Source: an uncultured bacterium (GTDB lineage: Bacteria > Patescibacteriota > Saccharimonadia > Saccharimonadales > CAIOMD01). Taken from it: a stretch of 34,618 nt of DNA. Positions 16,201 to 34,467 of the stretch are shown piece after piece. The stretch's first letter is position 1. Each line of letters begins with the position of its first letter. A program made the translations under genes and the position numbers. The stretch covers positions 1 through 34,618 of the forward strand of contig CAIRQE010000027.1 of the NCBI GenBank assembly GCA_903880655.1. Direction: 5' to 3'. The notes under the pieces were generated by a model. It searched no databases, was not told the origin of the DNA, and worked only from the letters and a program-made list of their open reading frames with translations.

Positions 16201-16817
16201 TGTTTGACGGCCGTACTGGTGACGCTTTCAAGGAACGAACAACTGTCGGTTCTATGTACATGATTAAGCTAAATCACATGATTGCGGACAAGATTCACGC
16301 TCGTTCAACTGGGCCTTACACTATGGTTACCCAGCAACCACTTGGCGGTAAAGCGCAAAATGGTGGACAGCGGTTTGGTGAGATGGAAGTATGGGCGCTT
16401 GAAGCGTATGGTGCCGCTAGTACTTTGCAGGAAATGCTCACCATCAAGTCAGACGATGTATACGGACGAGCTAAGGCGTACGAAAGTATCATTAAGCAGA
16501 CTGAAATTGTTGGGCCTAAGGTTCCAGAAAGCTTTAACGTGCTCGTTAAGGAACTACAAGGTCTTGGACTTAAAGTTGATCTAATTGATCAAAATATGGG
16601 CCAAGTTGTAGATGCAGAAGAATTGCTTGAAGTGAATATTAAAGACGAAGCTTCACATTTGTCAGCTGTCGAAGCGCCACAATCAGAAATTAATGACCTT
16701 GATCTTTCAGCTGATGTAGTTGGCGAAGATTTTCTAGTAGTAGATGAAAATGGTGAAGAGGTTGAAACAGCCGAATTACCCGTTGAAGTTAATGAAGAGG
16801 AGGTGACCAATGCGTAA
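13272..16817 (+). CDS. rpoB: DNA-directed RNA polymerase subunit beta
   Basis: Conserved blocks FVINGAERVVVSQL, GPGGLSRERAGFEVRD, QQRQAVPL, GRHGNKGV and GEMEVWALEAYGA. There is an acidic C-terminal tail. Confidence 0.98.
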   Translation: MAKTAAMKSDASASRIYYTKNEDINLPNLVDHQNKSFQWFVDEGLGELLAEVSPIDDYTGTKLSLSFKSYHFEEPKVSEALARENNVSYDAPLKAVVELTNKVTGEVKESEIYLGDYPWMTQRGTFVINGAERVVVSQLIRSPGVFFIAENHGNSRLYGAKVIPNRGAWLEFETAVNGALYVKIDRRRKIAVTTLFKALGMSETSIKEAMKHVDQGKLSYVDATLEKDPSKGTNEALIEVYRRLRPGDLATHDNARSLLENMFYNFKRFDFSRVGRYKINKRLDLDVPNTTENRVMRLEDLLAIVAEIIRLNNTQEPADDIDSLANRRVKLVGELVQRQFRIGLLRMQRNAMDRMSMSEIETVTPGQLINARPVVAAVREFFASSQLSQFMDQINPLSELAHKRRLSSMGPGGLSRERAGFEVRDAHATHYGRICAVETPEGANIGLVLNMASYARINDYGFLETPYRKVLSALPAKELAGHIAAVDLEDEKGKTIVKKGTKITAADIKKLDAIKTRATWPIKAKVTSEVIYLDAFEEEKAVIAGAGNDIDADGYFVNDRVSARSHLVAGEVDSDDVTYMDAALKQIVGSSASLIPFIEKNYVYRSLMGSNQQRQAVPLINPTAPIVGTGMEANAARNTGQIVLAEDKGTVIKAAGDGVVVQYEKVKKTYVPLRFQRSNEGSSINQKVVVNTGDVVKAGDVLIEGMSVDNGELALGKDLLVAFMPWAGYNFEDAIIISDRLIKDDEFTSIHIVDYMTEVRETKLGPEIVTMDIPNVSEEALRHLDEEGIVRIGAEVHPGDILVGKITPKGEQELSSEERLLRAIFGEKAKEVRDTSQRMSNGKHGKVVGVKVFSRANGHELKAGVIMQIQVFVAQMRKVAVGDKLGGRHGNKGVIARILPQEDMPFTEDGTPMDIILNPLGIPSRSNLGQLFETHLGMAARALGLHVATPPFNGVPIDKIRSLLKEAGLPEDGKQQLFDGRTGDAFKERTTVGSMYMIKLNHMIADKIHARSTGPYTMVTQQPLGGKAQNGGQRFGEMEVWALEAYGAASTLQEMLTIKSDDVYGRAKAYESIIKQTEIVGPKVPESFNVLVKELQGLGLKVDLIDQNMGQVVDAEELLEVNIKDEASHLSAVEAPQSEINDLDLSADVVGEDFLVVDENGEEVETAELPVEVNEEEVTNA

Positions 16818-19800: not shown

Positions 19801-20622
19801 GGTACTGCCAACGTATGGGAAGAAGGCGATCACTATATTATCCAGGTTGTCGGACAAGACCAGCAATCACTTGTCTTACCACTACTCGGCCGTAAGGCGT
19901 CTGTAGCTGAAGGGCAAGAAGTTGCAATTGGTGATGTTATAGCTTCTAAAGATAAGGCGAGTGAGCCACTTGTTGCGAGCATGGCCGGTAAAGTAACCCT
20001 AAATGAAACGGAAGTAACTATTGTTCCAAAGGATCAGGCTATCGTTCGATACGAAATTCCTGGCTTTAAGCAACTTCTTGTTAAGGATAAAGATTCAGTT
20101 AAGGCGGGCGACCGACTTACTAGTGGATCTGTTAACCTCCATGATCTTATGCGACTCAAGGGTGTTGAATCTACTCAGCGCTACATCATGAACGAAATAA
20201 GTAAGATCTTCGCATCACAGGGTCAAAACATAGCTGACAAACATCTAGAAATTGTCGTACGACAAATGTTTAGCCGTGTCACTATCGAAGAACCGGGTGA
20301 GAGCGAATATGTTACTGGAGATATCGCAAGTAAAGCGGCGGTTATCGAAGCGAACATGGGCCTTGTAGCGAATAAGAAGAAACCTGCACAATTTAGTCAA
20401 TTACTGCTTGGAATTACAAAGGTTTCTACCTGGGCTGATAGCTTCCTCTCTGCAGCAAGCTTCCAGGATACTACTCGAGTACTTATCAGTGCCGCTACAA
20501 GCGGTAAGGTTGATCAACTCTATGGTCTTAAAGAAAACGTTATCTTGGGTCGTAAGATTCCAGTTGGTACTGGGTATATTCCAGAGACTGACGAAGATGA
20601 AACCATTGACGAAGAAGCTTAA
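16810..20622 (+). CDS. rpoC: DNA-directed RNA polymerase subunit beta-prime
   Basis: Catalytic [12 protein letters not shown], plus [20 protein letters not shown] and [10 protein letters not shown]. The ATG overlaps the rpoB stop by 8 nt (ATGCGTAA). A GGAGGTGA Shine-Dalgarno lies upstream. Confidence 0.98.
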
Positions 20623-20644
20623 ATCTGTTTAAATAAAGGAAGTT

Positions 20645-21058
20645 ATGCCAACAATTAATCAATTAGTTAGAAAATCACGAAAGACAAGTGTTTACAAAAG
20701 TAAATCGCCAGCTCTTTTACGTGTGACTAACAACCTAAAAACCAAAGCTTATGAAAAGCCTGCACCATTCAAACGCGGTGTGTGTGTTAAGGTAACAACT
20801 AAAACTCCTAAGAAGCCAAACTCAGCCCTTCGTAAGGTTGCACGTGTGCGCCTTACAAATGGCTATGAAGTTTGGGCCTATATTGGTGGAGAAGGTCACA
20901 ACCTCCAAGAACACGCTGTTGTTCTTATAAGAGGTGGTCGTGTTCCTGACTTACCTGGTGTGCGTTATCACGTAGTACGTGGTAGCTTAGACCTTCAAGG
21001 TGTTAGCAATCGCAAGAATGGCCGTAGCAAATACGGAGCCAAAAAAGATAGTAAATAA
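20645..21058 (+). CDS. rpsL: 30S ribosomal protein S12
   Basis: [10 protein letters not shown]..., [11 protein letters not shown] and [10 protein letters not shown]. It has the Gram-positive-type internal insertion. Confidence 0.97.
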
Positions 21059-21137
21059 TTTTAGTGGCTTCAGTGACCGCTTCTCCCACTAATTTGGGTT
21101 GAAGAGCGAGCAGAAGTATATATAAAGGAGTACAGAA

Positions 21138-21614
21138 ATGCCACGAAAGAAAACCAAGAGCCTGGTACGAGATATACCAGCAGATCGTAAATATAATGAC
21201 GTTCGCGTTGCTCGTTTAATTAACCGAGTAATGCTTAACGGCAAAAAACAACTTGCAGAGAAAATTATCTATGATGGTATGGAAACAGCCGCTAAGAAAT
21301 TGAAGCAAGAAAGTCCGCTTGAAGTGCTTAACCGAGCACTAGATAACGTTAAGCCTAACGTTGAAACTCGTTCACGTCGTGTTGGTGGCGCTAACTATCA
21401 AATCCCATTTGAAGTTCGCGGACAAAGACAGAGTCATCTTACACTTATGTGGTTCGTAGCAGCTGCTCGATCTCGTAAAGGTATGCCAATGGCTGACCGT
21501 GTTGCAGCAGAAATCATGGATGCATTTAATGGTACCGGATCTGCTGTTAAGAAGCGTGAAGATACACACAAAATGGCTGAATCTAACAGAGCATTCGCTC
21601 ACTTCGCACGATAA
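21138..21614 (+). CDS. rpsG: 30S ribosomal protein S7
   Basis: Full-length S7 pattern (MPRKK..., VETRSRRVGGANYQIP, HKMAESNRAFAHF) in the canonical str-operon position. Confidence 0.97.
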   Translation: MPRKKTKSLVRDIPADRKYNDVRVARLINRVMLNGKKQLAEKIIYDGMETAAKKLKQESPLEVLNRALDNVKPNVETRSRRVGGANYQIPFEVRGQRQSHLTLMWFVAAARSRKGMPMADRVAAEIMDAFNGTGSAVKKREDTHKMAESNRAFAHFAR

Positions 21615-21655
21615 GAAACGCATTACTTTTAAAATTTTAATAAAACGAGGAATTT

Positions 21656-23749
21656 ATGGCAGCTAAAGTAACCCCTATGGATAAGATGCGCAATATTGGA
21701 ATTATTGCCCATATTGACGCCGGTAAAACAACAACAACTGAAGGTATTTTGTACCGAACTGGACTAAAGCATAAAATTGGTGCAGTTCACGAAGGTGGAA
21801 CAACAACTGACTGGATGGCACAGGAAAGAGAACGTGGTATCACGATTGTTTCTGCTGCTGTTACCAGCTATTGGAAAGATCACCAGATTAATATTATCGA
21901 TACACCAGGACATATCGACTTTACTGTAGAAGTAGAACGATCACTCCGGGTGCTTGATGGCGCTGTTGTAGTTTTCGACGGTAAAATGGGTGTTGAATCA
22001 CAATCGGAAACTGTATGGCGACAAGCTGACAAATATAAAGTTCCTCGTGCGTGTTTCATTAACAAGATCAACCAAACTGGTGGAGATTTTTATAAGTCTC
22101 TCGATTCAATCCATAATCGTCTTAACAAACGAGCTTTTCCAATTCACCTACCGATCGGTTTTGAGCAAGAAATCAATGGCGTAATTGACCTCGTAACCAT
22201 GAAGTCATACACCTATAAAGAATTTACTGATCACGAACTTATTGAAGGTGATGTACCTGCGGATATGCTTGACCAGGCGACGAAAGCACGAAGTCTCCTC
22301 GTTGAAAACGCAGTTGCAGAAGATGAGAAAATTCTAGAAAAATATTTTGAAGTTGGTGAAGAAGGCTTGAGTATCGCTGAAGTTAAACAAGCTATCCGAA
22401 CAGCAACCCTTAGTGGTCGTTTTTTCCCAGTAACTGGTGGAGATGGACGCGGCGTTATTGTTGAGAAGGTGCTTGATCTTGTTGTAGATGTATTACCAAG
22501 TCCGCTAGATCGTGGTAGCACATGGGGCCATCATCCAAAAACTGACGAAGAAATAGAACGTAAGCCAAATGACAGTGATCCTTTTGCAGCACTAGCCTTT
22601 AAGATTGCGACTGACCCCTTCGTCGGTAAGCTCGCTTACTTCCGTGTTTATAGCGGTAAAGTTTCTGCAGGTAGCTATATCTTAAATAGCTCAACTGGTG
22701 AAAAAGAACGTGTTGGTCGTATTGTACGTATGCAAGCTGACAAGCGTGAGGACGTCACTGAAGTTACTGCCGGAGATATCGCTGCTATTGTTGGCCTGAA
22801 GGGCACGACAACAGGTAACACACTCTGTGATATTGCAAAGCCTATTATCCTTGAAAGTATTACATTCCCTGAACCACCTGTTAGTATTGCGATCGAACCA
22901 GCTACAAAAGCTGACCAAGAAAAAATGGGTATTGCTTTGCAACGGCTTGCTGAAGAAGATCCTACATTCCGAGTGCGAGTTGATCACGAAACTGGCCAAA
23001 CCATTATTAATGGAATGGGTGAGTTACATCTTGAAATCATTGTTGATCGAATGAAGCGAGAATTCAACGTTGTCGCAAATATCGGTGCCCCGCAAGTTGC
23101 TTATCGAGAAACTATCCGTAAGGATGCTGTTGAAATCCAAGGCAAGTTTATACGTCAATCTGGTGGTCGTGGACAATACGGAGACGTATGGCTTCGATTA
23201 TCTCAGAATGAAGCTGGAAAAGGTTTTGAATTCATCAATAGCATTAAGGGTGGTGTTATCCCTACCGAATACATTCCCGCTGTTAAAGCAGGTATTGAAG
23301 AAGCTATGTCTAATGGTGTTCTTGCTGGCTATCCAGTTGTAGATATAAAAGCAGAACTTTATTATGGTAGTTATCACGACGTTGACTCATCTGAAATGGC
23401 CTTTAAGATTGCCGGTTCAATGGCGTTACAAGAAGGCGTTCGAAAAGCAAGTCCAGTACTCCTAGAGCCAGTCATGAAAGTTGTTGCTGTAACCCCAGAA
23501 GAAAACATGGGTGAAGTCATCGGTGACCTTAACTCAAAGCGTGGTCGCATTGAATCAATGGAAGACCTCCAGGCTAACGTTAAAGAAATAACAGCCTTTG
23601 TACCACTTGGCGAAATGTTTGGCTATACAACCAATCTTCGAAGCATGACAAAGGGTCGAGCAAGCAGTTCTATGGAGCTTGATCACTATGCTGATGTTCC
23701 AGGACATGTCGCCGATGCGATCGTCGCAAAAAATGCAAAGAGTGCTTAA
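21656..23749 (+). CDS. fusA: Elongation factor G
   Basis: GTPase G1 AHIDAGKTT and G3 DTPGHIDF, followed by EF-G domains II-V (for example [16 protein letters not shown]). Confidence 0.97.
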
Positions 23750-23760
23750 AAATAATACTC

Positions 23761-23790
23761 TTTACAAACAGATACCAAATTAGTTACAAT
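23761..23790 (+). promoter_or_regulatory. Candidate sigma70-type promoter for tuf (TTTACA-18-TACAAT)
   Basis: TTTACA at 23761-23766 and TACAAT at 23785-23790, in the 106-nt fusA-tuf spacer. Motif match only. Confidence 0.35.
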
Positions 23791-23855
23791 CTATGAGTTA
23801 TGCGTAAAAAGGCATTGCTCTTGAACGCAAAAAATATTAATCCCAAGGAGAACAA

Positions 23856-25040
23856 ATGGCAGAAACATTTGATCGCAGCAAACCGCATGTGAACGTTGGA
23901 ACTATGGGTCACGTTGACCATGGTAAAACTTCACTTACTGCTGCAATAACTATGACATTAGCAAAGCGCTTACCAAGTGCTGTTAACAAAGCTGTTAATT
24001 ATGACCAAATTGACAATGCACCTGAAGAAAAGGCTCGTGGTATAACCATTGCTACATCTCACCAGGAATATGAAAGCGAAAAGCGACACTACGCTCACGT
24101 GGACATGCCGGGTCACGCAGACTATGTAAAGAACATGATTACTGGTGCTGCTCAAATTGACGGTGCTATTCTTGTAGTATCAGCAGCTGACGGCCCTATG
24201 CCTCAGACTCGTGAACACGTTCTTCTTGCTAAGCAAGTTGGTGTTCCAAAGATTCTTGTTTTCCTAAACAAGATGGACCTTGCTGATCCTGAATTAGTAG
24301 AACTAGTTGAAATGGATGTTCGTGAGCTATTAGCTAAGTACGATTACGACGAAAACTGCCCGATCATTAAGGGTTCTGCTACCAAAGCTATCGAAGGCGA
24401 CAAAGAAGCTGAAGATGCTGTCATGGAACTCGTTGCAGCTATGGATGATTTCATTCCAGAGCCAAAGCGAGACCTAGACAAGCCTTTCCTAATGCCTATT
24501 GAAGACGTATTTAGCATCAAGGGTCGTGGTACTGTTGCTACCGGTCGTGTTGAAACTGGAATCGTCAAGGTTAACGAAGAAGTTGAAATCGTTGGTCTTA
24601 AGGACACACGCAAGGTTGTCGTAACTGGTGTTGAAATGTTCAAGAAACAACTTGACCAAGGACAAGCTGGTGACAACGTTGGAATCTTGCTTCGTGGTGT
24701 AGAACGTGATGATATCGAGCGCGGCCAAGTGCTTGCTAAACCAGGTTCTATTACTCCTCATACTGAATTTGATGCTGAAGTATATATCCTTACTAAAGAA
24801 GAAGGTGGACGGCACACTCCTTTCTTCAAGGGATACAAGCCTCAATTCTACTTCCGTACTACGGACGTAACTGGTGAAGTTGAACTTCCAGCAGATAAAG
24901 AAATGGTTATGCCTGGTGATACTATTACCTTCAAGGTTAGCCTACTTAATCCAATTGCTATGGAACAAGGACTACGCTTCGCTATTCGTGAAGGTGGCCG
25001 TACCGTAGGTGCTGGTGTTGTAACTAAGATTACTAAATAA
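23856..25040 (+). CDS. tuf: Elongation factor Tu
   Basis: [18 protein letters not shown] and NKMD. Full-length EF-Tu pattern. AAGGAG Shine-Dalgarno upstream. Confidence 0.98.
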
Positions 25041-25060
25041 TCTGATTGCACTAAAAAATG

Positions 25061-25090
25061 GAGCTGGCTTAAACAACCAGCTCTTTTTTT
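25061..25090 (+). terminator. Intrinsic terminator after tuf
   Basis: Stem GAGCTGG (25061-25067) / CCAGCTC (25077-25083), followed by T7. Confidence 0.8.
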
Positions 25091-25093
25091 GAT

Positions 25094-25122
25094 TTGAAAA
25101 AAACAACTATAACAGGTATAAT
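25094..25122 (+). promoter_or_regulatory. Near-consensus promoter for rpsJ (TTGAAA-17-TATAAT)
   Basis: TTGAAA at 25094-25099, an exactly 17-nt spacer, and TATAAT at 25117-25122. It lies immediately after the tuf terminator and ~95 nt upstream of rpsJ. Confidence 0.65.
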
Positions 25123-25217
25123 AAAACTTGTAAAATAATTGTAATGACAACTCATCCAGATGTGTGCACATAGGTCACAATTCGAGAAGAGGTTACATTA
25201 CGCGACAGGAGCTATAA

Positions 25218-25544
25218 ATGGCAACAGCCGAACAACCAAAGCAACAACGAATTCGCATTCGTCTAAAAGCGTATGATCATAAAGTTATTGATCAATCAGC
25301 AAAGCAGATCGTAGACACCGCGCTACGTACCGGAGCAACAATTGCCGGCCCAATTCCTCTTCCAACTCGGAAAACGGTTTATACGGTCGTTAAAAGCCCC
25401 CACGTGTATAAAAAAGGCCGTGAACAGTTTGAGATGAGAGTGCACAAGCGTCTTATTGATATTTCTAATCCAACCCCTAAGACAATCGATAGTTTAATGA
25501 ATCTATCTTTGCCAGCTGGTTGTGACGCTGAAATTAAGATGTAA
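25218..25544 (+). CDS. rpsJ: 30S ribosomal protein S10
   Basis: [11 protein letters not shown]..., [22 protein letters not shown]. Confidence 0.97.
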
Positions 25545-25565
25545 AGAGAATTTTATTAAAAAAAT

Positions 25566-25594
25566 ACACCCCAATAATATGGGGTGTTTTTTAT
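25566..25594 (+). terminator. Intrinsic terminator immediately after rpsJ
   Basis: Stem ACACCCC (25566-25572) / GGGGTGT (25581-25587), followed by TTTTTTATT. Confidence 0.75.
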
Positions 25595-25597
25595 TGC

Positions 25598-25646
25598 AAA
25601 GATAAGGGGAGAGTTCAAGGGCATATTACTGCCCAAGAACTCTCCC
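25598..25646 (-). terminator. Long hairpin downstream of the minus-strand 76-codon ORF (candidate terminator)
   Basis: GGGAGAGTTC (25607-25616) pairs with GAACTCTCCC (25637-25646). An inner GGGCA/TGCCC stem has a 6-nt loop. An AA/AA internal mismatch separates the two stems. On the minus strand the hairpin is followed by UUAUCUUUG. Confidence 0.5.
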
Positions 25647-25678
25647 AGGTGAATGTGAGTGATGCGGGCCGGTGAGAT

Positions 25679-25909
25679 TTAGGTAAGTGGTACGAATACC
25701 AAATGATCAAAATCAATCCAGCCTGGATCATGTCCTGTGTCTTTGAAGACACGCTTTCGGAATTGCATCGCAACATTCTTGCGATAATTCTCGCTACCAG
25801 CTCTTGCTTTTGCGTAGGTGTTGTCGTTCAGCCGAAGCCGTTCAACAACCCAGCCACGCACATGCGAGACCCGGTAGATGGTGCTGGATCCTCGAGGCAA
25901 CCAGACCAC
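25679..25909 (-). CDS. Small hypothetical protein (73-76 aa; GTG or in-frame TTG start)
   Basis: The ORF has its own upstream TTGTGT-17-TATAGT promoter, a G-rich Shine-Dalgarno (AAAGGGGG) and a downstream hairpin. I recognised no family motif. It lies in a locally GC-rich patch (~50-60% by eye). A coding call is preferred over the overlapping plus-strand ORF but is not certain. Confidence 0.45.
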   Translation of the reverse strand: MVWLPRGSSTIYRVSHVRGWVVERLRLNDNTYAKARAGSENYRKNVAMQFRKRVFKDTGHDPGWIDFDHLVFVPLT

Positions 25910-25952
25910 CCCCTTTGGGTAAAATGCTCTAACAACTTGTCAGAGCGATAAT

Positions 25953-25981
25953 ACTATACAATAAAAAGATAAAATACACAA
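25953..25981 (-). promoter_or_regulatory. Candidate promoter for the 76-codon ORF (TTGTGT-17-TATAGT on minus strand)
   Basis: The reverse complement of 25953-25981 reads TTGTGT ATTTTATCTTTTTATTG TATAGT. Confidence 0.4.
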
Positions 25982-25984
25982 TAA

Positions 25985-26028
25985 GCAAAAAGCCCTACAA
26001 AACTGTTATCACAGTGAAGTAGAGCTTT
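25985..26028 (-). terminator. Intrinsic terminator after the 192-aa ORF
   Basis: On the minus strand AAAGCTCTAC pairs with GTAGGGCTTT (one mismatch) around a 20-nt loop, followed by UUUUGCUUAUU. It starts 4 nt after the TAG stop. Confidence 0.5.
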
Positions 26029-26031
26029 ATG

Positions 26032-26610
26032 CTAGCGCCTTTTTGGAAGGGCGCAATCAAAACTGTAGGCTGTTTTGCCTAATTCTTTTTCATAGGGACG
26101 GGGCAGCACGGTTATTCGAACTGCACTGTGACCAATTCTAAAGAATCGACGAAACTTTCTCGCAACGGTGTCCTTTTGGGGTACATGCCTCGGAACTGTT
26201 GACTTAGTACTAAATGCTTTTCCGTCTATAAGACGATTCAAGCGATTATACAGTAGGTGAGAAATTGTTTCGTAATTGATTGCGCCACGGCCATCTCGTC
26301 GCCACTGGATTTCCAGGTAGGGCATCTTAAATGTGTCGCTCTTATCTTTGATAAGATCATACTTGTGATCAATCGCATAGACGAGAATGAGTGAAATTAT
26401 GATGTCCTCAGCTTCATTCAACTCATTAATTGTAGCCTTGTATCGCGCTGCGATCGCCGGATTAAGGCTGGCCATTACTGATTCAAATGAAGCTTTCCTG
26501 TTTCTTACTCTGTTAAGAGTTCTTCCAAGTTTATTCAGATCTGCTTTTGATCTGGGTATTACTATCCTCAGCTTTATTTTGCTGGTTCGATTCCTTGGCC
26601 GATCGGCCAT
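26032..26610 (-). CDS. Orphan hypothetical protein, 192 aa, highly basic, possible ribbon-helix-helix-like N-terminus
   Basis: Strong Shine-Dalgarno (GAGGAGG, 8 nt before the ATG), with its own promoter and terminator. The protein is rich in Arg/Lys. Its N-terminus KIKLRIVIPRSKADLNKLGRTLNRVRNRKASFESV fits a beta-strand/helix/helix pattern. I recognised no catalytic family motif. Confidence 0.7.
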   Translation of the reverse strand: MADRPRNRTSKIKLRIVIPRSKADLNKLGRTLNRVRNRKASFESVMASLNPAIAARYKATINELNEAEDIIISLILVYAIDHKYDLIKDKSDTFKMPYLEIQWRRDGRGAINYETISHLLYNRLNRLIDGKAFSTKSTVPRHVPQKDTVARKFRRFFRIGHSAVRITVLPRPYEKELGKTAYSFDCALPKRR

Positions 26611-26626
26611 AGAATATACCTCCTCG

Positions 26627-26653
26627 TAGTGGGACTAGTAGGACTAGCAGTAT
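26627..26653. repeat. Tandem 9-nt units TAGTGGGAC / TAGTAGGAC / TAGCAGTAT between the promoter and Shine-Dalgarno of the 192-aa gene
   Basis: Read directly. Units 1 and 2 match 8/9. Unit 3 is degenerate (6/9). They lie at the predicted transcription start of the minus-strand gene. Confidence 0.45.
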
Positions 26654-26654
26654 T

Positions 26655-26683
26655 ACTTTATAACAATAGCTTAGCAAAGTCAA
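26655..26683 (-). promoter_or_regulatory. Candidate promoter for the 192-aa gene (TTGACT-17-TAAAGT on minus strand)
   Basis: The reverse complement of 26655-26683 reads TTGACT TTGCTAAGCTATTGTTA TAAAGT. The -35 is bracketed by a 9-bp inverted repeat, AGCTTAGCA (26668-26676) / TGCTAAGCT (26704-26712). Confidence 0.4.
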
Positions 26684-26744
26684 TTAAACATAAGAATTTT
26701 TTATGCTAAGCTGTACGAGCAATAAAATAATTGCCGAGAAGAAC

Positions 26745-26771
26745 TCTATAAATAAAGCCCATCAGGGCTTT
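26745..26771 (-). terminator. Hairpin terminator at the stop codon of the MprF-like gene (potentially bidirectional)
   Basis: AAAGCCC (26754-26760) ATCA GGGCTTT (26765-26771). It is followed by AUUUAU on the minus strand and by ATTTTTTAT on the plus strand. Confidence 0.5.
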
Positions 26772-28398
26772 ATTTTTTATCTTTGTAGCTTAACAGTGTA
26801 TTAAGTCCAAGTATTATTTGCGGTAAGTTAGCCGCAGACCCCTTATAGAGAATATACCGAGGTTCCCAAGAAGGTTCAAACTTATTTTTGAACTGTTCCA
26901 GCCCTTCGAATGAATAATACCTGCGCCCTATTTTTTTAATCACTATAAGAAATTTGTCTGAAATGCCTGATATATTATCGTCTAATTTGGAAAGGGGGGC
27001 TAGGCCCAAATTTAATGTAGCGATATTATGGTTTCGTAGCTCCTCGATAGTCTTAAGAAAGAGGAAGTGCATGGAAATACTTGGAATATTTTTTCTAAAG
27101 CGCATTAGATCAACGCTCGAATGTAGGTTATCGAATGTAGGTATCAGATTTATAAACGCTTTAGGCTCGTCATCTTTATAGAGCACTGAAACATTGCAAT
27201 CGTTCAAGTAACTGCCATTGAAGTATCCCATAACAAATTCGTATTCTCTTCGGTCATTATTGAGCCAATCATTGGAAATACTTTTTAATTTCGCTATTCT
27301 ATCAATCGTATGGGGAGCTTGCCAGAATTCAACATGAAGATTTTCTGTATTAGCCTTATTCTTTACGTACCTAAAGTGTTTATTATTTTCAATTGATTCA
27401 AAATGAGATATATCTACACGCGCTTCTGAACCAATATATTGTTTTTGAAAAGTAAGTTCTGCCCATCCCTTGGCTTCTTCTTCGTCTGCATGTATAACTG
27501 TAATTTCCCAACCATTATTAAAACATTCATCACTAAATGCCCTTCGTAGTGTTGAGAAATGTGCCCTGTTCCCGGTACAGCCATCAAGAATAAAAGCTAT
27601 CCCATTCTTAAGTCCATAGCAAATGAATGAATCATCATAGAAGAAAAAGTGTTTATTACGAGTTGGCCATATTTTAAAATAATCTTCACTTGACGATGAA
27701 TAGCGTTCTAGGATCCTGTGGGCTTGTGAAAATTGAAAGCTAGAAGAGTTAGCTCCTAATTTACGGGGTCTGAATATTGCGAATAACATGGTGGCAATTG
27801 CAAATAATATGCTGAATCGCATCAAGTTGATTAAGAAATGTGCTTGAGGTGATTCAAATAAGTATTTAGGTATTGGCTTGCCGAGTATTGCATCCCATGT
27901 TATTCGTATATCCTGAGTGGTAGTAAGATGAACGCCGAATTCCCGATTATCAATAATTAAAAATGATGCTGCCACTACCACGAGCAGCACAAAGACCACA
28001 GCTACGCTTGTCGAAACTATTTTACTGGCACTTCTAAAATCACTTCTTACGATGTACTGTTTCCTTGATTGTATAAGCAAAATGAGGATGCCGCTATATA
28101 GAATGAGTGGCAGATGATAACTCTGATGAAGAAAATCAAAAACTATCAATAGCGATAGCCCAATAACTGCAAGAATAAAAGCAGTTCTTTTTCTATTAAA
28201 TAACTGGGCTGAAATATAGAGGAGGATAATACCGATAAAAATTCCTAGTATTCTTGATATTGATTCTGGGTCATATGGTAGATATTGCTCGATACGTGTT
28301 GGAACAATGCTTAACGGAACACTTATAAGAGCAACAACGCCCGCAATTCTAACGAGCCAGGCGCTAATATTTATCGTATTTATTTTTCCTAAACCCAT
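26770..28398 (-). CDS. Aminoacyl-phosphatidylglycerol synthase-like protein (MprF C-terminal/DUF2156-type; six TM helices plus cytosolic domain, no flippase half)
   Basis: The N-terminal ~215 aa contain about six hydrophobic helices. The C-terminal domain carries blocks typical of MprF/LysX synthase domains: FFFYDDSFICYGLKNGIAFILDG, DLMRFR, ATLNLGLAPLS, RRYYSFEGLEQFKNKFEPSWEPRYILY. The gene looks more AT-rich (~35% GC in sampled lines) than its neighbours. Confidence 0.7.
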   Translation of the reverse strand: MGLGKINTINISAWLVRIAGVVALISVPLSIVPTRIEQYLPYDPESISRILGIFIGIILLYISAQLFNRKRTAFILAVIGLSLLIVFDFLHQSYHLPLILYSGILILLIQSRKQYIVRSDFRSASKIVSTSVAVVFVLLVVVAASFLIIDNREFGVHLTTTQDIRITWDAILGKPIPKYLFESPQAHFLINLMRFSILFAIATMLFAIFRPRKLGANSSSFQFSQAHRILERYSSSSEDYFKIWPTRNKHFFFYDDSFICYGLKNGIAFILDGCTGNRAHFSTLRRAFSDECFNNGWEITVIHADEEEAKGWAELTFQKQYIGSEARVDISHFESIENNKHFRYVKNKANTENLHVEFWQAPHTIDRIAKLKSISNDWLNNDRREYEFVMGYFNGSYLNDCNVSVLYKDDEPKAFINLIPTFDNLHSSVDLMRFRKNIPSISMHFLFLKTIEELRNHNIATLNLGLAPLSKLDDNISGISDKFLIVIKKIGRRYYSFEGLEQFKNKFEPSWEPRYILYKGSAANLPQIILGLNTLLSYKDKK

Positions 28399-28545
28399 TG
28401 CTCGTAGTATAGATTAATATCATCAAACTTTAAAATTATGCTTGCAATAGTTTTTATTTGTTTCATACTAAAATAAAACTCGTTCAAATTGAATGAACAA
28501 AAGAAACACAGAGCTAAAATAATTGGGGTAATAGGGTTTAAACGT

Positions 28546-30129
28546 ATGACGACTAAATATATTTTTGTTACAGGTGGAGTTTTAAGTGGAGTAGGAAAGG
28601 GTATTACTGCTGCCAGTATCGGAGCGCTCCTTAAGGCGAGAGGATACAAAGTTAATATCCAAAAGTGTGACCCTTATTTTAATTTTGATGCAGGAACGCT
28701 GAATCCAGCAGAGCATGGAGAAGTATTCGTCACTAAGGATGGAGCCGAAACTGACCTTGATCTTGGGCACTACGAGCGTTTTCTAGATATTGAACTAACA
28801 CAATCGAGCTCTACGATGAGTGGACGTATATTTAGACAAGTAATTGAAGATGAACGAGCAGGAAAGTATCTTGGAAAAACAGTTCAAATTATTCCGCATG
28901 TCACGAACGCGATGCAAGAAGCAATTGCAGAAGCTGGAAAAGGTTTTGATGTGCATATTGTTGAAGTTGGTGGCACTGTAGGAGATTATGAAAGTACTGC
29001 ATTTATTGAAGCTATAAGACAATTCCGCCATCAAGTAGGCGCCAAAAATACACTTTCTGTTCATGTCGTTTATTTGCCCTACCTAACAGCTTCAGCTGAA
29101 GTAAAGTCAAAACCAGCTCAAAATGCAGTAAGAGATCTAAGGGAAGCAGGTATTCAACCAGATATTTTAATTGCTAGAACAGATCATCCGGTGCCAAATG
29201 GTGTTCTTAATAAGCTAAGTCTTTTTGGTGATGTAGCGCGTGAAGCTGTCATCGCACTCCCGACAGTAAAAACTGTCTATAGTGTTCCAGTTATTCTTGA
29301 AGACGCTGGAGTTGGCAGGATTGTTGCCGAACATTTCGGACTAACGAAAAAGAAACCTAATTTGAAAAATTGGCATAACTTAGAGTTAAAAGTTTTATCT
29401 AAAAACAATAAAACCGTAAAGATAGGACTTGTTGCTAAGTATCTTGACCACCAAGACACTTACGCATCTGTTATTGAAGCTATAAAGGCTGCTTGTTGGG
29501 CAGAAGATAAAAAAGCCGATATTAAATGGATCGATGCTGAATCGCTCACTACGAAAAATGTTGCTTCAAAGCTAAAAGGGCTTGATGGAATTGTTGTGCC
29601 AGGTGGCTTCGGTTCAAGGGGTGTTGAAGGAAAAATCGTAGCTGCAACACACGCCTTTAAGCGCAACATTCCCTACTTAGGCCTATGTCTTGGTATGCAA
29701 GTTGCCTGTATTGCCGCAGCGCGGCTTTCAGGTTTGCACGATGCCAACTCAACTGAATTTGATCCCAAAACAACGAGTCCCGTTATAGGACTTATGGAAG
29801 AGCAAAAAACATTAACAGTTATAGGTGGCACTATGCGCCTCGGTAATTATGAGTGTGCGCTGGAAAAGAAATCAAAGGCTGCCAAGCTCTATGGTAAGAC
29901 CAAAATAGAAGAACGACATCGGCATCGCTATGAGTTTTCGAATGATTATGAGGATGCACTTCGCTCTCAAGGACTTACAGTCGTCGGTAGAAATCCACTA
30001 ACTGGGCTTGCTGAAGTAGTAGAGGCATCAGCTAAAAAATACTTTATCGCTAGCCAGTATCATCCAGAATTTAATTCACGCCCAATGCGACCCCACCCAT
30101 TATTTTTAGGCTTGATCCGCTCAATTTAG
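28546..30129 (+). CDS. pyrG: CTP synthase
   Basis: N-terminus MTTKYIFVTGGVLSGVGKGI, glutamine amidotransferase Cys in GLCLGMQ, and HRHRYE. I prefer the ATG at 28546 over the TTG track start at 28489. Confidence 0.95.
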   Translation: MTTKYIFVTGGVLSGVGKGITAASIGALLKARGYKVNIQKCDPYFNFDAGTLNPAEHGEVFVTKDGAETDLDLGHYERFLDIELTQSSSTMSGRIFRQVIEDERAGKYLGKTVQIIPHVTNAMQEAIAEAGKGFDVHIVEVGGTVGDYESTAFIEAIRQFRHQVGAKNTLSVHVVYLPYLTASAEVKSKPAQNAVRDLREAGIQPDILIARTDHPVPNGVLNKLSLFGDVAREAVIALPTVKTVYSVPVILEDAGVGRIVAEHFGLTKKKPNLKNWHNLELKVLSKNNKTVKIGLVAKYLDHQDTYASVIEAIKAACWAEDKKADIKWIDAESLTTKNVASKLKGLDGIVVPGGFGSRGVEGKIVAATHAFKRNIPYLGLCLGMQVACIAAARLSGLHDANSTEFDPKTTSPVIGLMEEQKTLTVIGGTMRLGNYECALEKKSKAAKLYGKTKIEERHRHRYEFSNDYEDALRSQGLTVVGRNPLTGLAEVVEASAKKYFIASQYHPEFNSRPMRPHPLFLGLIRSI

Positions 30130-30158
30130 TCACCCCAATCGGATAGTCATAAATAACC

Positions 30159-30187
30159 TTGACCTAACAGGGATAATCTGCTAGAAT
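30159..30187 (+). promoter_or_regulatory. Candidate promoter upstream of rplC (TTGACC-17-TAGAAT)
   Basis: TTGACC at 30159-30164, a 17-nt spacer, and TAGAAT at 30182-30187. It lies 30 nt after the pyrG stop and ~140 nt before rplC. Confidence 0.5.
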
Positions 30188-30213
30188 TCTTTGGTATATC
30201 AAGATTTTTGTTC

Positions 30214-30267
30214 CTTGGTGAGTCGGTAAGTCTATAAAGATACTGCCGTTCCACCAAGCATTTTTAT
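30214..30267 (+). promoter_or_regulatory. Terminator-like hairpin plus U-tract inside the rplC leader (candidate attenuator)
   Basis: CTTGGTG (30214-30220) pairs with CACCAAG (30252-30258), and an inner CGG/CCG extends the stem. CATTTTTAT follows. A second GC-rich hairpin, GGGCG (30276-30280) / CGCCC (30288-30292), lies downstream. Confidence 0.35.
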
Positions 30268-30328
30268 GCTCTGAAGGGCGCGTCGAACGCCCCTGGTATG
30301 GGAACACCTAAATAAAGAACGGAGAACT

Positions 30329-30940
30329 ATGAAAGCTCTCATTACGAGGAAAGTTGGCATGACTAGTATCATCTCTGAAGATGGTGCGCTCACTCCTGTC
30401 ACTTTGCTTTCCGCTAGTCCCTGTGTTGTTACACAGGTCAAAACAGCAGAAAACGACGGTTATACTGCGGTACAGCTCGGTTTCGAAGAAGGTAAGCATA
30501 CTGCTAAGCCTCAAGTTGGACACTTTAAAAAGTCTGGCGCGAATCCAAAGATTGTACGTGAATTTAGGGTCACTGAAATTGAAGAAGACATAAAAACAGG
30601 AGCTACTTTTGCTGCTGATGTTTTTGAAGTTGGTGATACCGTTCATGTAACAGGTACAAGTAAAGGTAAAGGCTTTGCCGGAACCATTAAGCGACATAAT
30701 TTTAAAAGAGGTCGTAAGACACATGGTGGCCGAAGCTATCGACGCCCAGGTTCAATTGGATCCATGTACCCTCAAAAAGTTTTCAAAGGTATGAAAATGG
30801 CAGGACAAATGGGTCACGAACAAGTTACTGTTCAGAACTTACGTGTTGCTTTAGTTGACCTTGAAAACCAAGTTATTGGTCTTGTTGGCGCCGTACCTGG
30901 CCCACGTAAAGGTATCATCCTTGTGAAAGGAGCTAAATAA
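30329..30940 (+). CDS. rplC: 50S ribosomal protein L3
   Basis: MKALITRKVGMT..., GTSKGKGFAGTIKRHNF. GGAGAA Shine-Dalgarno upstream. Confidence 0.97.
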   Translation: MKALITRKVGMTSIISEDGALTPVTLLSASPCVVTQVKTAENDGYTAVQLGFEEGKHTAKPQVGHFKKSGANPKIVREFRVTEIEEDIKTGATFAADVFEVGDTVHVTGTSKGKGFAGTIKRHNFKRGRKTHGGRSYRRPGSIGSMYPQKVFKGMKMAGQMGHEQVTVQNLRVALVDLENQVIGLVGAVPGPRKGIILVKGAK

Positions 30941-31575
30941 TGGCTACTCCAACATTTACATCATCTGGCGCTAAAGCTACTACAGCCGTGTCACTACCAA
31001 AATCAGTATTCTCTATAGAAGTAACATCACATCAGCTTCTTAAGGATGCATATCTTGCTCATCAAGCGAATACTCGTCCTAATTTAGCTAAGACCCTCAA
31101 AAGAGGTGAAGTTAGTGGTGGTGGTAAAAAACCATGGCAGCAAAAAGGCACAGGACATGCCCGTGTCGGTTCTTCACGAAGTCCCATCTGGCGTAAAGGT
31201 GGTGTTATATTTGGACCATCTGGCAACGAGAACTACAGCCGAAAGATTAATGTCAAGGCTAAACGTCTTGCTATAACTCAAGCGTTATCACTTGCTAGTG
31301 AAGCAAAGAAAGTTATCATCATTGATGATTTTAAAACTACTGGCAAAGTCAGTGATACTGCTAAATTTATGAATAAGATTGGTGCAGATCGAAACGTGCT
31401 TCTTGTGGTTAACGAATTAACTGATCTCGTTAAGCGTTCAACAAATAACCTACCATACGTTGCAGCAGTACAGGCAACTCGTCTTAATGTATGTGACATC
31501 CTTGATGCAGGAGTTATCGTCGTAACTAAAGATTCAATAAGCGCTATTGAAAAATGGCTTGGAGGTACAAAATAA
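30940..31575 (+). CDS. rplD: 50S ribosomal protein L4
   Basis: GGGKKPWQQKGTGHARVGS motif. TAATG overlap with rplC. Confidence 0.96.
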   Translation: MATPTFTSSGAKATTAVSLPKSVFSIEVTSHQLLKDAYLAHQANTRPNLAKTLKRGEVSGGGKKPWQQKGTGHARVGSSRSPIWRKGGVIFGPSGNENYSRKINVKAKRLAITQALSLASEAKKVIIIDDFKTTGKVSDTAKFMNKIGADRNVLLVVNELTDLVKRSTNNLPYVAAVQATRLNVCDILDAGVIVVTKDSISAIEKWLGGTK

Positions 31576-31889
31576 TGGATTTTGTTTTATACCCACGAGT
31601 AAGTGAAAAAGCATACGGCAGTGCAACTGCACTTAACTGCTACGTTTTCAACGTACCACTTACTGCTAATAAAATTGAAGTTAAAAAAGCTGTTGAAACT
31701 AAATACGAAGTTACTGTGGAAACAGTTAACATGGTTCGTATGAAGGGCAAACGAGTTAACCGAGCTATCAATAACCGTGGAACTCGAACTAGAGGAAAAC
31801 GAATTGATTTCAAGAAGGCATATGTACTTGTTAAAGAAGGTCAAACTATTCCAGTCTTTGCATCAGCTGAAGAAGAGGAGAAGAAATAA
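31575..31889 (+). CDS. rplW: 50S ribosomal protein L23
   Basis: MDFVLYPRVSEKA... L23 pattern. The ATG at 31575 overlaps the rplD TAA (TAATG), with GGAGG 10 nt upstream. The track start at 31554 is an in-frame extension inside rplD. Confidence 0.93.
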   Translation: MDFVLYPRVSEKAYGSATALNCYVFNVPLTANKIEVKKAVETKYEVTVETVNMVRMKGKRVNRAINNRGTRTRGKRIDFKKAYVLVKEGQTIPVFASAEEEEKK

Positions 31890-32734
31890 TGGCTATTAAA
31901 TTATTAAATCCAACCACTCCTGGCCGTCGTGGCATGACCACGCAGGACTTCTCTGACATTACTTCAAAGAAGAACAAACCTGTTAAAAGCCTGATTACTA
32001 TCAAAAAAGGTTCAGTTGGGCGAAACAACCAAGGTCGTATTACAACTCGACACCGTGGTGGTGGCGTTCGACGATACTACCGAAATGTTAACTTCAAATT
32101 AGAAGCCGGCACACAAGCAGTTATCGAAGCTATTGAATATGATCCAAACCGATCTGCACGTATTGCTCGAATCAAGGATCAAAACGGTGTTTACCACTAT
32201 ATCCTTGCAGCAAATGGTATGACTGTTGGACAAAAGATTGTTTCTGCTGAGGATGCTCCTATTGAAACTGGTAACAGACTTCCTATTAAGAGTATTCCAA
32301 CCGGTAGTGCTATCTATGCTATTGAACTTCAGATTGGCCGTGGTGCGCAACTAGTGCGAAGTGCTGGTAATAATGCACAGCTCGTCGCCAAAGAAGGCGA
32401 TTACGCACAAGTGAAGTTACCTTCTGGTGAAGTACGTCTAATACATGTTGAATGTACTGCCCAAATTGGTACTGTTGGTAACGCACAGCACCAAAACGTT
32501 AAGATTGGTAAAGCCGGACGAAACCGTAAACTGGGTAAGCGACCAAGCGTTCGTGGTGTGGTTATGAATGCTGTCGATCATCCGCACGGTGGTGGTGACG
32601 GTGGACGTCACCGAATGGCCAAAGCGCCGCGTACTCCATGGGGTCAAAAGACTCTTGGATACAAGACTCGACGACGTAAGCTTACTAATTCATTTATTGT
32701 TAAAACTCGTCATCAGACTAAGAGGAGAGGTTAA
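31889..32734 (+). CDS. rplB: 50S ribosomal protein L2
   Basis: RHRGGG, VMNAVDHPHGGG and GYKTRR motifs. TAATG overlap with rplW. Confidence 0.97.
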   Translation: MAIKLLNPTTPGRRGMTTQDFSDITSKKNKPVKSLITIKKGSVGRNNQGRITTRHRGGGVRRYYRNVNFKLEAGTQAVIEAIEYDPNRSARIARIKDQNGVYHYILAANGMTVGQKIVSAEDAPIETGNRLPIKSIPTGSAIYAIELQIGRGAQLVRSAGNNAQLVAKEGDYAQVKLPSGEVRLIHVECTAQIGTVGNAQHQNVKIGKAGRNRKLGKRPSVRGVVMNAVDHPHGGGDGGRHRMAKAPRTPWGQKTLGYKTRRRKLTNSFIVKTRHQTKRRG

Positions 32735-32737
32735 ACC

Positions 32738-33007
32738 ATGAGTCGTTCACTGAAAAAAGGACCATTTATTGATCCAAAACTTGCAAAGAAAGTTGCGAAA
32801 CTTGGTAATGAAGATCGAACCATTATTAAAACATGGGCTCGTGCTTCAACAATCACTCCTGAATTTGTTGGTAAGACAATAGCGGTACACAACGGTCGTG
32901 TGCATGTACCCGTATTTGTTACAGAAAACATGGTTGGACATAAATTAGGTGAATTTTCACCAACCCGTAAGTTCCGCTCGCACGGCGGTAAATTGGCTAA
33001 GAAGTAG
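32738..33007 (+). CDS. rpsS: 30S ribosomal protein S19
   Basis: [12 protein letters not shown]..., [18 protein letters not shown]. Confidence 0.97.
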
Positions 33008-33018
33008 GAGTTATTACT

Positions 33019-33423
33019 ATGTCTGTACTCGCAATTGCTAAAGGTGTAAGAATGAGCCCACGAAAAGTTGGGGTAGTAGCTGCTCTCGTAAGAGGCCGTA
33101 CTGTTGCTGATGCACTCGTAATCCTAGAACATACTCCACGAAGAAGTGCGGAACCAGTTGCTAAGGTTATTGCAAGTGCTCGAGCTAACGCTGAGCATAA
33201 CCATAACTTGAAGCCTGATACGCTCCGAATTGTAGAAATAAGTGTTTCTCCAGGCCAACGTCTGAAGAGATACCGACCTGCTGCTCGTGGACGAGCTAAT
33301 CCTTTCCAACGACGAACAAGTCACATTCGAGTTGTTGTTGATGGTGAAGCACGTGTATCTAAAAAAGTTTCTGAAAAGGCTCCAAAAGCTGATTCAGCTA
33401 AAGCTAAGAAGGAGACCAAATAA
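33019..33423 (+). CDS. rplV: 50S ribosomal protein L22 (with basic C-terminal extension)
   Basis: SPRKVGVVAALVRGR... and RYRPAARGRA motifs in the canonical position. About 25 extra Lys/Ala-rich C-terminal residues. Confidence 0.95.
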   Translation: MSVLAIAKGVRMSPRKVGVVAALVRGRTVADALVILEHTPRRSAEPVAKVIASARANAEHNHNLKPDTLRIVEISVSPGQRLKRYRPAARGRANPFQRRTSHIRVVVDGEARVSKKVSEKAPKADSAKAKKETK

Positions 33424-34052
33424 TGGGTCAAAAAGTAAATCCAATTAGTTTCCGTCTACAGCTTAATAAGAACTGGCGTAGTAAATGGTTCGCTCCTAAA
33501 AAGGATTACACCATTTTTCTAACACAAGATCTTGCTGTTCGACGAATGATCGATAAAAAAATTGGTTCTCGTGGTGCTATTAATACGGTGGATATAGAAC
33601 GATCTCCAAACATGGTATCCGTTACTATTCACACCGCTAAAGCCGGTGTTGTTATTGGCCGTGGTGGTGCGGGAGCCCAAGAACTAAAGGCTGCTATTGA
33701 AAAAATTTATGGCATCCAAGTTCGAGTTAACATTGAAGAAGTTAAAAAGCCTGAACTACATGCAAAATTAGTTGCTGAAAATATCGCAAACCAACTTGAA
33801 CGACGTATTGCATTTAGACGAGCTATAAAGAGCTCTGCTGGTGCAACTATGCGTGCTGGTGCTAAGGGTATCCGTATTGAAGTCGCTGGACGACTTAATG
33901 GTGCTGAAATGTCACGACGAGAAAAGATGATTGAAGGTTCAGTTCCTCTTCATACCCTTCGTGCAGATATTGACTATGGCTATGTAAGAGCAAAGACTAT
34001 CACCGGTATTATCGGTGTTAAGGTTTGGATCTACAAAGGAGAGGTAAGCTAG
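33423..34052 (+). CDS. rpsC: 30S ribosomal protein S3
   Basis: [12 protein letters not shown]..., KH-domain [13 protein letters not shown] overlap with rplV. Confidence 0.97.
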
Positions 34053-34053
34053 T

Positions 34054-34467
34054 ATGTTACTCCCAAATAAAATGAAGCACCGAAAGGTGTTCAAAGGTAA
34101 AATCCGTGGTACAGCAAGTGCCGGTAACTACATTGCTTATGGAAGTTATGCACTGCAGTCACTCGGCAACGAACGTATTACGAGCCGTCAAATTGAATCA
34201 GCTCGTCAGGCTATGACTCGTTACGTCAAGCGTGGTGGCCGTATCTGGATTCGTATTTTTCCACATACGCCTGTTACTCGTAAACCACAAGACGTTAAAA
34301 TGGGTAGCGGTAAAGGAAATCCAGAATTTTTCGTAGCTAAGGTTCGACCAGGCACAATCTTGTTCGAAATGCAGGGTGTTGATGAATCAGTTGCTAGAGA
34401 AGCTATGAGACTTGCTGCACATAAGCTACCTATCAAGACTAAATTCTTGGTTAAGGAGGACGTATAG
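34054..34467 (+). CDS. rplP: 50S ribosomal protein L16
   Basis: [11 protein letters not shown]..., IWIRIFP and KMGSGKG motifs. Confidence 0.97.

Follow-up and report, generated by a model that had tools for sequence, protein, structure and literature searches.

A lineage-variable gap between rpsJ and rplC in Saccharibacteria, with a candidate structured leader before rplC

In Escherichia coli, the S10 operon of ribosomal protein genes runs in the order rpsJ-rplC-rplD and onward, and its S10 leader is controlled by ribosomal protein L4. The proteins S10 and L3, encoded by rpsJ and rplC, are common syntenic markers for the binning and phylogeny of genomes from the candidate phyla radiation (CPR). 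The DNA examined here, a stretch of 34,618 nucleotides referred to as the window (contig CAIRQE010000027.1 of assembly GCA_903880655.1), comes from an uncultured bacterium of the order Saccharimonadales in the Saccharibacteria. In this window, a 4784-bp interval that holds three minus-strand genes (orf73, orf192 and mprF) and plus-strand pyrG separates the end of rpsJ at 25544 from the start of rplC at 30329. An earlier note on this DNA, made from the sequence alone, had described exactly this layout and had read the interval as accessory DNA recently inserted between two genes that bacteria normally keep adjacent. The layout is as described. Comparison with related genomes leads to a different reading of it: the rpsJ-rplC split is the norm throughout Saccharibacteria, and the content of the gap varies by lineage.

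A search with rpsJ returned 80 loci, each from a different species genome of the collection and nearly all labelled Saccharibacteria or Saccharimonadales, of which CAIOMD010000007.1 (L001) lies nearest to the window. Across the 73 loci with an rpsJ-rplC distance, the two genes are 134-7641 bp apart (median 1432), with more than 300 bp between them in 95% of loci and more than 1 kb in 67%. The next junction, rplC-rplD, has a median distance of -1 bp, and in none of 69 loci does it exceed 300 bp. Given such gaps across the class, the rule that rpsJ is followed directly by rplC, which had served as the baseline for the insertion reading, is not valid for Saccharibacteria. Literature searches turned up no account of the split, or of a leader ahead of rplC, for Saccharibacteria.

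Directly ahead of rplC, two predicted elements of the window proved to be conserved features of this junction:
30159-30187, plus strand: predicted promoter of the rplC operon, TTGACC-17-TAGAAT with a TG (extended -10)
30188-30328, plus strand: structured rplC leader, with a covarying hairpin at 30214-30258 and a U-tract at 30261-30265

The pattern TTGACA-N13-16-TGnTAnnnT is found upstream of rplC in 68 of 75 loci, and the combination of promoter and leader hairpin is present at rplC in 73 of the 83 sources searched (for example L014 11594-11700 and L028 10779-10885), with a nearly invariant U-tract after the hairpin. Of the 13 pairs that RNAalifold predicts for the leader, 11 show compensatory changes. 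In a 17-pair version of the structure, 92.2% of cells are paired versus 79.8% in shuffles (0/500), double-change cells number 148 versus 42 in shuffles, and slid controls are only 30-47% paired. A covariance model of the leader produced 73 matches in 1.33 Mb. Each matched locus has a single one, on the rplC strand and immediately ahead of that gene, and these include loci that had been left out of model building. Folding of the window's own leader gives this hairpin as well (z -3.35). Neither the window leader nor that of L014 has an Rfam 15 match at E<=1, and none is entered for this lineage in a catalogue of ribosomal leaders published in 2020 (PMC7247131). A terminator-like structure that follows a promoter and precedes an essential operon, and whose internal loops are conserved in sequence, suggests a conditional attenuator, and by analogy with the E. 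coli S10 leader it may respond to L4. The promoter, covarying hairpin and U-tract before rplC are best described as a candidate new ribosomal-protein leader or attenuator, which is probably the most novel item at this locus.

The gaps themselves are filled mostly by lineage-specific genes, and 147 of the 228 open reading frames (ORFs) found in them are singletons. Two families recur, a small membrane protein of about 90-110 amino acids and a NUDIX hydrolase. The membrane protein occurs in 42 of 80 loci, always on the rplC strand and usually ending about 170-210 bp before rplC, and it carries a motif that reads roughly YFLK...G..W...IPIP.G...G...A.HDHF.IDRKIE. It has no Pfam match and is not among the window's genes; examples are found in the following positions:
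L076, 1651-1941
L014, 11233-11550
L015, 11486-11764
L006, 6500-6763

The remaining occupants are metabolic or membrane proteins of ordinary kinds, among them IMPDH/GMP reductase, adenosine deaminase, Ham1, an NTPase, glutamate dehydrogenase, peptidases, VKOR and VIT1. Of the gap family matches listed (the top 25 of 59 Pfam families and 25 of 31 PHROG families), none is to an integrase or transposase. In two family-level relatives (L005 and L006), pyrG also lies between rpsJ and rplC, with other neighbors. As a separate observation, the gap genes of L004-L080 include several with roles in the metabolism or sanitation of nucleotides (NUDIX, Ham1/ITPase, NTPase_I-T, IMPDH/GMP reductase, adenosine deaminase and guanylate kinase). 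The presence of pyrG in the window matches this pattern, and the gap site may have a functional bias. The explanation favored here, and judged likely, is that the rpsJ-rplC gap in Saccharibacteria is a permissive site, and that the four genes of the window's clade were inherited there and have been remodelled by deletion and recombination.

In the window, rpsJ is the last member of the gene string rpoB-rpoC-rpsL-rpsG-fusA-tuf-rpsJ on the 5' side of the interval, and rplC is followed on the 3' side by the closely packed rplD-rplW-rplB-rpsS-rplV-rpsC-rplP. The interval and its two border genes are as follows:
25218-25544, plus strand: rpsJ, ribosomal protein S10 (Ribosomal_S10, 1e-36)
25679-25900 (or to 25909), minus strand: orf73, a basic orphan protein of 73 amino acids with a TTG start
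26032-26610, minus strand: orf192, 192 amino acids, predicted to be a divergent Mu Gam-like protein
26770-28398, minus strand: mprF, 542 amino acids, a synthase-only MprF homologue by domain prediction
28546-30129, plus strand: pyrG, CTP synthase (NCBIfam CTP synthase, 2e-222)
30329-30940, plus strand: rplC, leading the tight rplC-rplD-rplW-rplB... operon

The same four genes stand in the same order between rpsJ and rplC in seven further assemblies (L001, L082, L095-L098 and the P0001 contig), and an eighth (L081) keeps the order with mprF missing. The assemblies that share the order come from different samples. Every clade member recovered has the block; only mprF varies, by a deletion that left a scar, and no empty site was encountered. 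Amino-acid identity to the window proteins is 45-98% for orf192, 63-98% for mprF, 79-99% for orf73, 82-100% for pyrG and 99-100% for rpsJ. Divergence between the window and L095 has reached saturation at the synonymous sites of mprF and pyrG, and the arrangement is therefore old and inherited rather than the product of a recent single insertion. The same block in relatives, which the earlier note had named as the observation that would speak against recent insertion, is seen throughout the genus and not across the class, where distant relatives carry other genes.

The genome that lacks mprF reveals how this difference arose. L081 aligns to the window at 95.7% identity over 16026-26784 and at 97.8% over 28423-34431, and the part between them is absent:
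26785-28422: segment missing from L081, 1638 bp

What remains in L081 is a 13-codon ORF, MNTSTWLAKNDKK followed by a stop codon, in which mprF codons of about 7-16 are fused to the last five codons of the gene. Because this scar preserves both the 5' and the 3' end of mprF, the difference is a clean deletion in L081 and not a gain in the window.

A second kind of change is evident where divergence within the block disagrees with that of its flanks:
about 25400-26650: predicted recombination tract, spanning the 3' end of rpsJ, orf73, and orf192 with its promoter

Nucleotide identity between the window and L081 is 72-84% in this tract and 97-100% in the flanks, and synonymous divergence (dS) is 0.51-0.58 for orf73 and orf192 versus 0.02-0.29 for the flanks. 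Against L001 the disagreement takes the opposite direction, with 93-97% identity in the tract and 88-95% in the flanks; dS is 0.11 for orf192 and 0.20 for orf73, versus 0.35 for tuf, 0.44 for rpsJ, 0.98 for fusA and 2.75 for pyrG. The assembly L082 has a window-type mprF (98%) together with an L081-type orf192 (76%). Homologous exchange between related lineages is the simplest explanation for this discordance, and the orf73-orf192 tract would thus have been exchanged by homologous recombination. Such exchange fits what has been demonstrated for Saccharibacteria, namely natural competence and the integration of DNA by recombination through homology arms of about 1 kb (PMC10633639). Identity to L081 also dips locally, to 86-90% within surroundings of 97-100%, in fusA (22400-22800) and rplP (34200-34400), and these dips may be further small recombination tracts.

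The two genes within the tract bear out the earlier note's view that the interval is the seat of the window's least-characterized genes. On its own, orf192 scores 19.6 bits against Pfam Phage_Mu_Gam (PF07352), under the cut-off of 28.3. A profile search of 1.84e9 representative proteins found seven members, including an orthologue at the locus (P0007) and the distant P0009-P0011. Both P0007 (35.5 bits) and P0009-P0011 (41-58 bits) exceed the PF07352 cut-off, and all four match PHROG 491, 'Mu Gam-like end protection'. The profile ties orf192 to P0009-P0011 over positions 15-181, and those proteins span 9-148 of the 149-position PF07352 model. By this transitive homology, orf192 is predicted to be a divergent Gam-like protein, which may have the Ku-like dimeric fold and may bind the ends of double-stranded DNA. 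Its family profile has a sole match in PDB, to 2p2u (putative Gam protein), at E=0.06. The AF2 model of orf192 (pLDDT 62) has no Foldseek match at E<=0.001 and is too poor for fold matching. The gene is fast-evolving (45-98% identity among orthologues at the locus), with a ratio of nonsynonymous to synonymous divergence (dN/dS) of 0.2-0.3. No relatives were found in INPHARED phages (50,697 records) or IMG/VR, and a pattern for the orf192 subfamily matched only the genome of L001 among 185,579 GTDB species genomes.

Several other sequences were considered alongside orf192. A 192-amino-acid ORF beside rpsJ in L006 was rejected as a homologue since it encodes a VKOR protein. The contigs carrying P0009 and P0011 are only 1.4-1.6 kb long and give no useful gene context. 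P0009 (L099 276-818) adjoins a segment (L099 1-120) that translates as TPAGFEPA, as tRNA genes typically do, on a contig too short to interpret. A membrane ORF that follows P0011 on its similarly short contig (L101 1058-1369) resembles by eye the VKOR gene that abuts rpsJ in L006.

The neighboring orf73 is judged, from its pattern of substitution, to be a real gene under purifying selection. Its TTG start is preceded by a GGGGG Shine-Dalgarno sequence, its frame is open in all lineages with substitutions concentrated at third codon positions, and its dN/dS is about 0.2. Only three relatives were found among 5.8e9 proteins. Searches gave no match in Pfam, NCBIfam or PHROGs, none by tblastn in phages, and, for the predicted beta-beta-alpha-alpha-beta fold (pLDDT 81), none by Foldseek in PDB or BFVD. 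A role in binding nucleic acid is probable for this basic protein. A noncoding RNA in the GC-rich region at 25.6-25.93 kb was also entertained and rejected, since it has no credible Rfam match and the minus-strand ORF is open in three lineages with a third-position bias.

The alternative that survives best concerns these two genes alone, namely that orf73-orf192 (about 25.6-26.65 kb) is foreign DNA, the domesticated relic of a Mu-like prophage or of some other mobile element, which was captured in the gap in the ancestor of the genus and has since been spread or replaced by recombination among related lineages. This origin is given somewhat less than an even chance. It would account for the link to Phage_Mu_Gam and PHROG 491 through P0007 and P0009-P0011, with 2p2u as the sole PDB profile match, for the elevated GC at third codon positions (GC3) of orf73 (z +4.4) and orf192 (z +2.5), for the extreme rarity of the orf192 family (seven representatives in 1.84e9 proteins, one species genome in 185,579), and for divergence that is discordant with the flanks. 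Weighing on the other side, no other phage genes lie nearby, the phage records and IMG/VR hold no relatives, purifying selection acts on both genes, which keep a single fixed locus throughout the clade, and orf192 falls short of the Pfam threshold. A foreign origin for this pair would be compatible with the favored explanation, inheritance and remodelling at a permissive site, for the rest of the block.

Composition, which had been called mosaic by eye, is indeed heterogeneous, for mixed reasons. All values are relative to a background of only 30 kb that consists mostly of highly expressed genes. The segment 25800-25920 has 58.7% GC, placing it in the top 0.06% of 120-nt windows, and orf73 as a whole has 49% GC (z +3.9), whereas orf192 is mildly atypical in GC3. 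Tetranucleotide deviation is highest over mprF (z up to 4.9), where GC falls to 36.3% (z -3.1). The GC3 of mprF is normal (z +0.2) and the deviation is confined to codon positions 1 and 2, so the low GC stems from the amino-acid make-up of a membrane protein and not from codon usage. The composition of pyrG is indistinguishable from the background.

This heterogeneity is one of the observations that could favor the reading of the whole 4.8-kb block as a recently integrated island or mobile element that broke an intact S10 operon; the others are the opposite-strand genes, each with its own signals, and the presence or absence of mprF between near-identical genomes. Such an origin is nevertheless very improbable. 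The block contains no tRNA and no Rfam family, and scans with Pfam and NCBIfam found no integrase or transposase gene in it. The absence of integrase, transposase and tRNA at the borders had already been pointed out in the earlier note, and the same now applies to repeats bracketing the block. Furthermore, the gene order is common to lineages with saturated synonymous sites in mprF and pyrG, 95% of the Saccharibacteria examined have the split, a scar identifies the mprF difference as a deletion, and pyrG is native in composition. The label of accessory DNA also fails for pyrG, which is a housekeeping gene. A chimera of assembly or binning is barely credible: the genome is of metagenome type and some related records have wrong taxon labels, but the same order recurs in eight further independent assemblies from different samples (L081 without mprF), and the L081 alignment is continuous at 96-98% across both borders.

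The identity of pyrG is secure at the family level, where it meets the CTP synthase equivalogs NF003792 (739 bits, cut-off 308) and TIGR00337 (707 bits, cut-off 463). The ORF as listed opens at TTG 28489; the family alignment and the 527-amino-acid calls in relatives favor ATG 28546, which is probably the true start. A start at 28546 leaves a divergent promoter region of 147 bp between mprF and pyrG. The MprF protein has an LPG_synthase_C (DUF2156) domain (PF09924, 2e-52, 2-298 of 298) and aligns to positions 325-838 of the 841-position model for bifunctional MprF, with 317 bits against an equivalog cut-off of 600. It has only 5-6 transmembrane helices, and the N-terminal flippase half is missing. 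These domains predict a synthase-only aminoacyl-phosphatidylglycerol synthase. Genes resembling mprF, at 27-45% identity, occur at unrelated positions in other Saccharibacteria, and a phosphatidylglycerol lysyltransferase gene was reported earlier in a Saccharibacteria genome (PMC6031116).

Candidate transcription signals accompany most of these genes:
25094-25122, plus strand: promoter-like site of rpsJ, TTGAAA-17-TATAAT, an 11/12 match located 3' of the tuf terminator hairpin (25061-25083)
25566-25587, with a T-run to 25594: intrinsic-terminator-like hairpin after rpsJ, found on both strands
25607-25646, minus strand: hairpin with 17-bp arms 3' of orf73, likely the orf73 terminator, kept in relatives
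25990-26030, minus strand: hairpin and T-run 3' of orf192, likely a terminator, read from the sequence and not in the hairpin scan list, conserved
26655-26683, minus strand: promoter-like site of orf192, TTGACT-17-TAAAGT
26750-26775: 11-bp hairpin over the mprF stop codon, kept in L081 beside the deletion scar
28406-28434, minus strand: promoter-like site of mprF

Both the near-consensus rpsJ promoter at 25094 and the terminator at 25566-25594 are present where they had been placed previously. In relatives, the loop of this terminator varies and the stem is kept. With a predicted terminator after rpsJ and a predicted promoter before rplC, the proposal that rpsJ is transcriptionally separate from rplC finds support. 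As to the related proposal that each minus-strand gene has its own signals, promoter-like sites are present for orf192 and mprF, and for orf73 none passed the promoter scan. In the region as a whole, terminator-like sites number 11 versus 4.9 ± 2.2 in shuffles, and promoter-like sites number 18 versus 14.6 ± 4.4, which is not an enrichment. The rpsJ promoter of TM7x, predicted to be strong, was chosen to express a resistance gene from a promoter of its own (Wang et al. 2023).

Other junctions on the 5' side of rpsJ are similarly loose. The distance between fusA and tuf has a median of 509 bp in 59 loci, reaches 5.4 kb, and exceeds 300 bp in 68%, and that between tuf and rpsJ has a median of 587 bp in 70 loci, reaches 2.5 kb, and exceeds 300 bp in 77%. 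The whole str-tuf-rpsJ string in Saccharibacteria seems to be split into single-gene units. The corresponding positions in the window are as follows:
21656-23749: fusA
23750-23855: fusA-tuf junction
23856-25040: tuf
25041-25217: tuf-rpsJ junction

In two close relatives, L002 (2501-12500) and L003 (10325-18317), no rplC, pyrG or mprF lies within 8-10 kb 3' of rpsJ. The ribosomal cluster appears to be located wholly apart from rpsJ in this pair (rpsJ 96-98% identical).

Under the explanation of a permissive site, the S10-type operon of Saccharibacteria would start at rplC, with its own extended -10 promoter and terminator-like leader, and rpsJ would be a separately promoted and terminated gene that closes the rpoBC-str-tuf string. 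The space between them would be permissive, taken up by different ordinary genes from one lineage to the next. In the window's genus-level clade, its occupants would form four independent, vertically inherited transcription units, among which a dispensable MprF would aminoacylate phosphatidylglycerol and orf192 would be a fast-evolving, Gam-like binder of DNA ends. Remodelling would take place in situ, by deletion (the loss of mprF in L081) and by homologous recombination (the exchange of the orf73-orf192 tract), with the highly conserved flanks probably serving as homology arms in these naturally competent bacteria and no mobile element being involved.

Several considerations weigh against this explanation. 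The 80 loci are the best rpsJ matches and not a random sample of the class. A strict hairpin scan recovered a post-rpsJ terminator in only 29 of the 80 loci, although that scan is too crude to call the remaining loci terminator-free. Where the gap is very short, the hairpin of the leader could be no more than the terminator of rpsJ. The orf73-orf192 pair, given its atypical GC3 and the phage-associated family of orf192, may have originated from a mobile element. Finally, all of the promoters and terminators, and the attenuator role, are predictions made from sequence.

A more elaborate scenario can be built by analogy, and it is considered rather unlikely in its entirety. After rpsJ became detached, a class-specific and undescribed RNA attenuator before rplC, sensed by a ribosomal protein (L4 by analogy), would have taken control of the S10-type operon, and the gap would have become a class-wide landing pad for gene swaps driven by transformation. 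In this genus, the gap would have captured a domesticated Gam-like protector of DNA ends and an orphan partner, which might influence what becomes of incoming DNA.

Overall, the interval is an ordinary lineage-specific feature of gene order that includes two small understudied genes, and what most deserves attention is the variable gap found across the class, along with the undescribed leader of rplC. A gap between rpsJ and rplC is the lineage norm in Saccharibacteria and should not be annotated as an insertion. The variable distance between S10 and L3 genes, from 0.1 to more than 10 kb, affects assumptions about the co-linearity of contigs. The rplC promoter and leader represent a testable candidate for ribosomal-protein autoregulation, and cultivated members of the group are now genetically tractable. 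The gap likewise illustrates, in a natural setting, how gene cassettes turn over through recombination and deletion in epibionts that are ultra-small and naturally competent, and the rare genes orf73 and Gam-like orf192 are brought to attention as knockout targets.

Four described systems provide the closest comparisons. The MprF protein shares with other aminoacyl-phosphatidylglycerol synthases a full-length LPG_synthase_C domain and N-terminal transmembrane anchors, and it differs in being without the flippase half and in being encoded by a gene that is dispensable in L081. Relative to Mu Gam (PF07352, PHROG 491, PDB 2p2u), orf192 is of similar length, has a long helical N-terminal region followed by strands, and aligns full-length with members above the Pfam threshold. 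It differs in falling under that threshold itself, in residing at a single chromosomal locus outside any prophage, and in having no confident structural match.

Like gene-flux hotspots and flexible genomic islets, the rpsJ-rplC gap has fixed core-gene borders, content that varies among lineages, and turnover by recombination and deletion. In contrast to them, its occupants look like metabolic or membrane genes of ordinary kinds and not integrative elements or defense islands (among the families listed and the ORF scans of L005 and L006; no library of defense genes was searched), and its content is stable within the window's genus. Compared with the canonical S10 operon of E. coli, rpsJ is detached in the window, with a predicted promoter and terminator of its own, and the leader precedes rplC rather than rpsJ, is not represented in Rfam, and may, by analogy, be bound by a ribosomal protein. 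From rplC onward, the window keeps the tightly packed order of the canonical operon, and ahead of it there is again a structured leader of terminator-like form, analogous to the L4-responsive attenuator.

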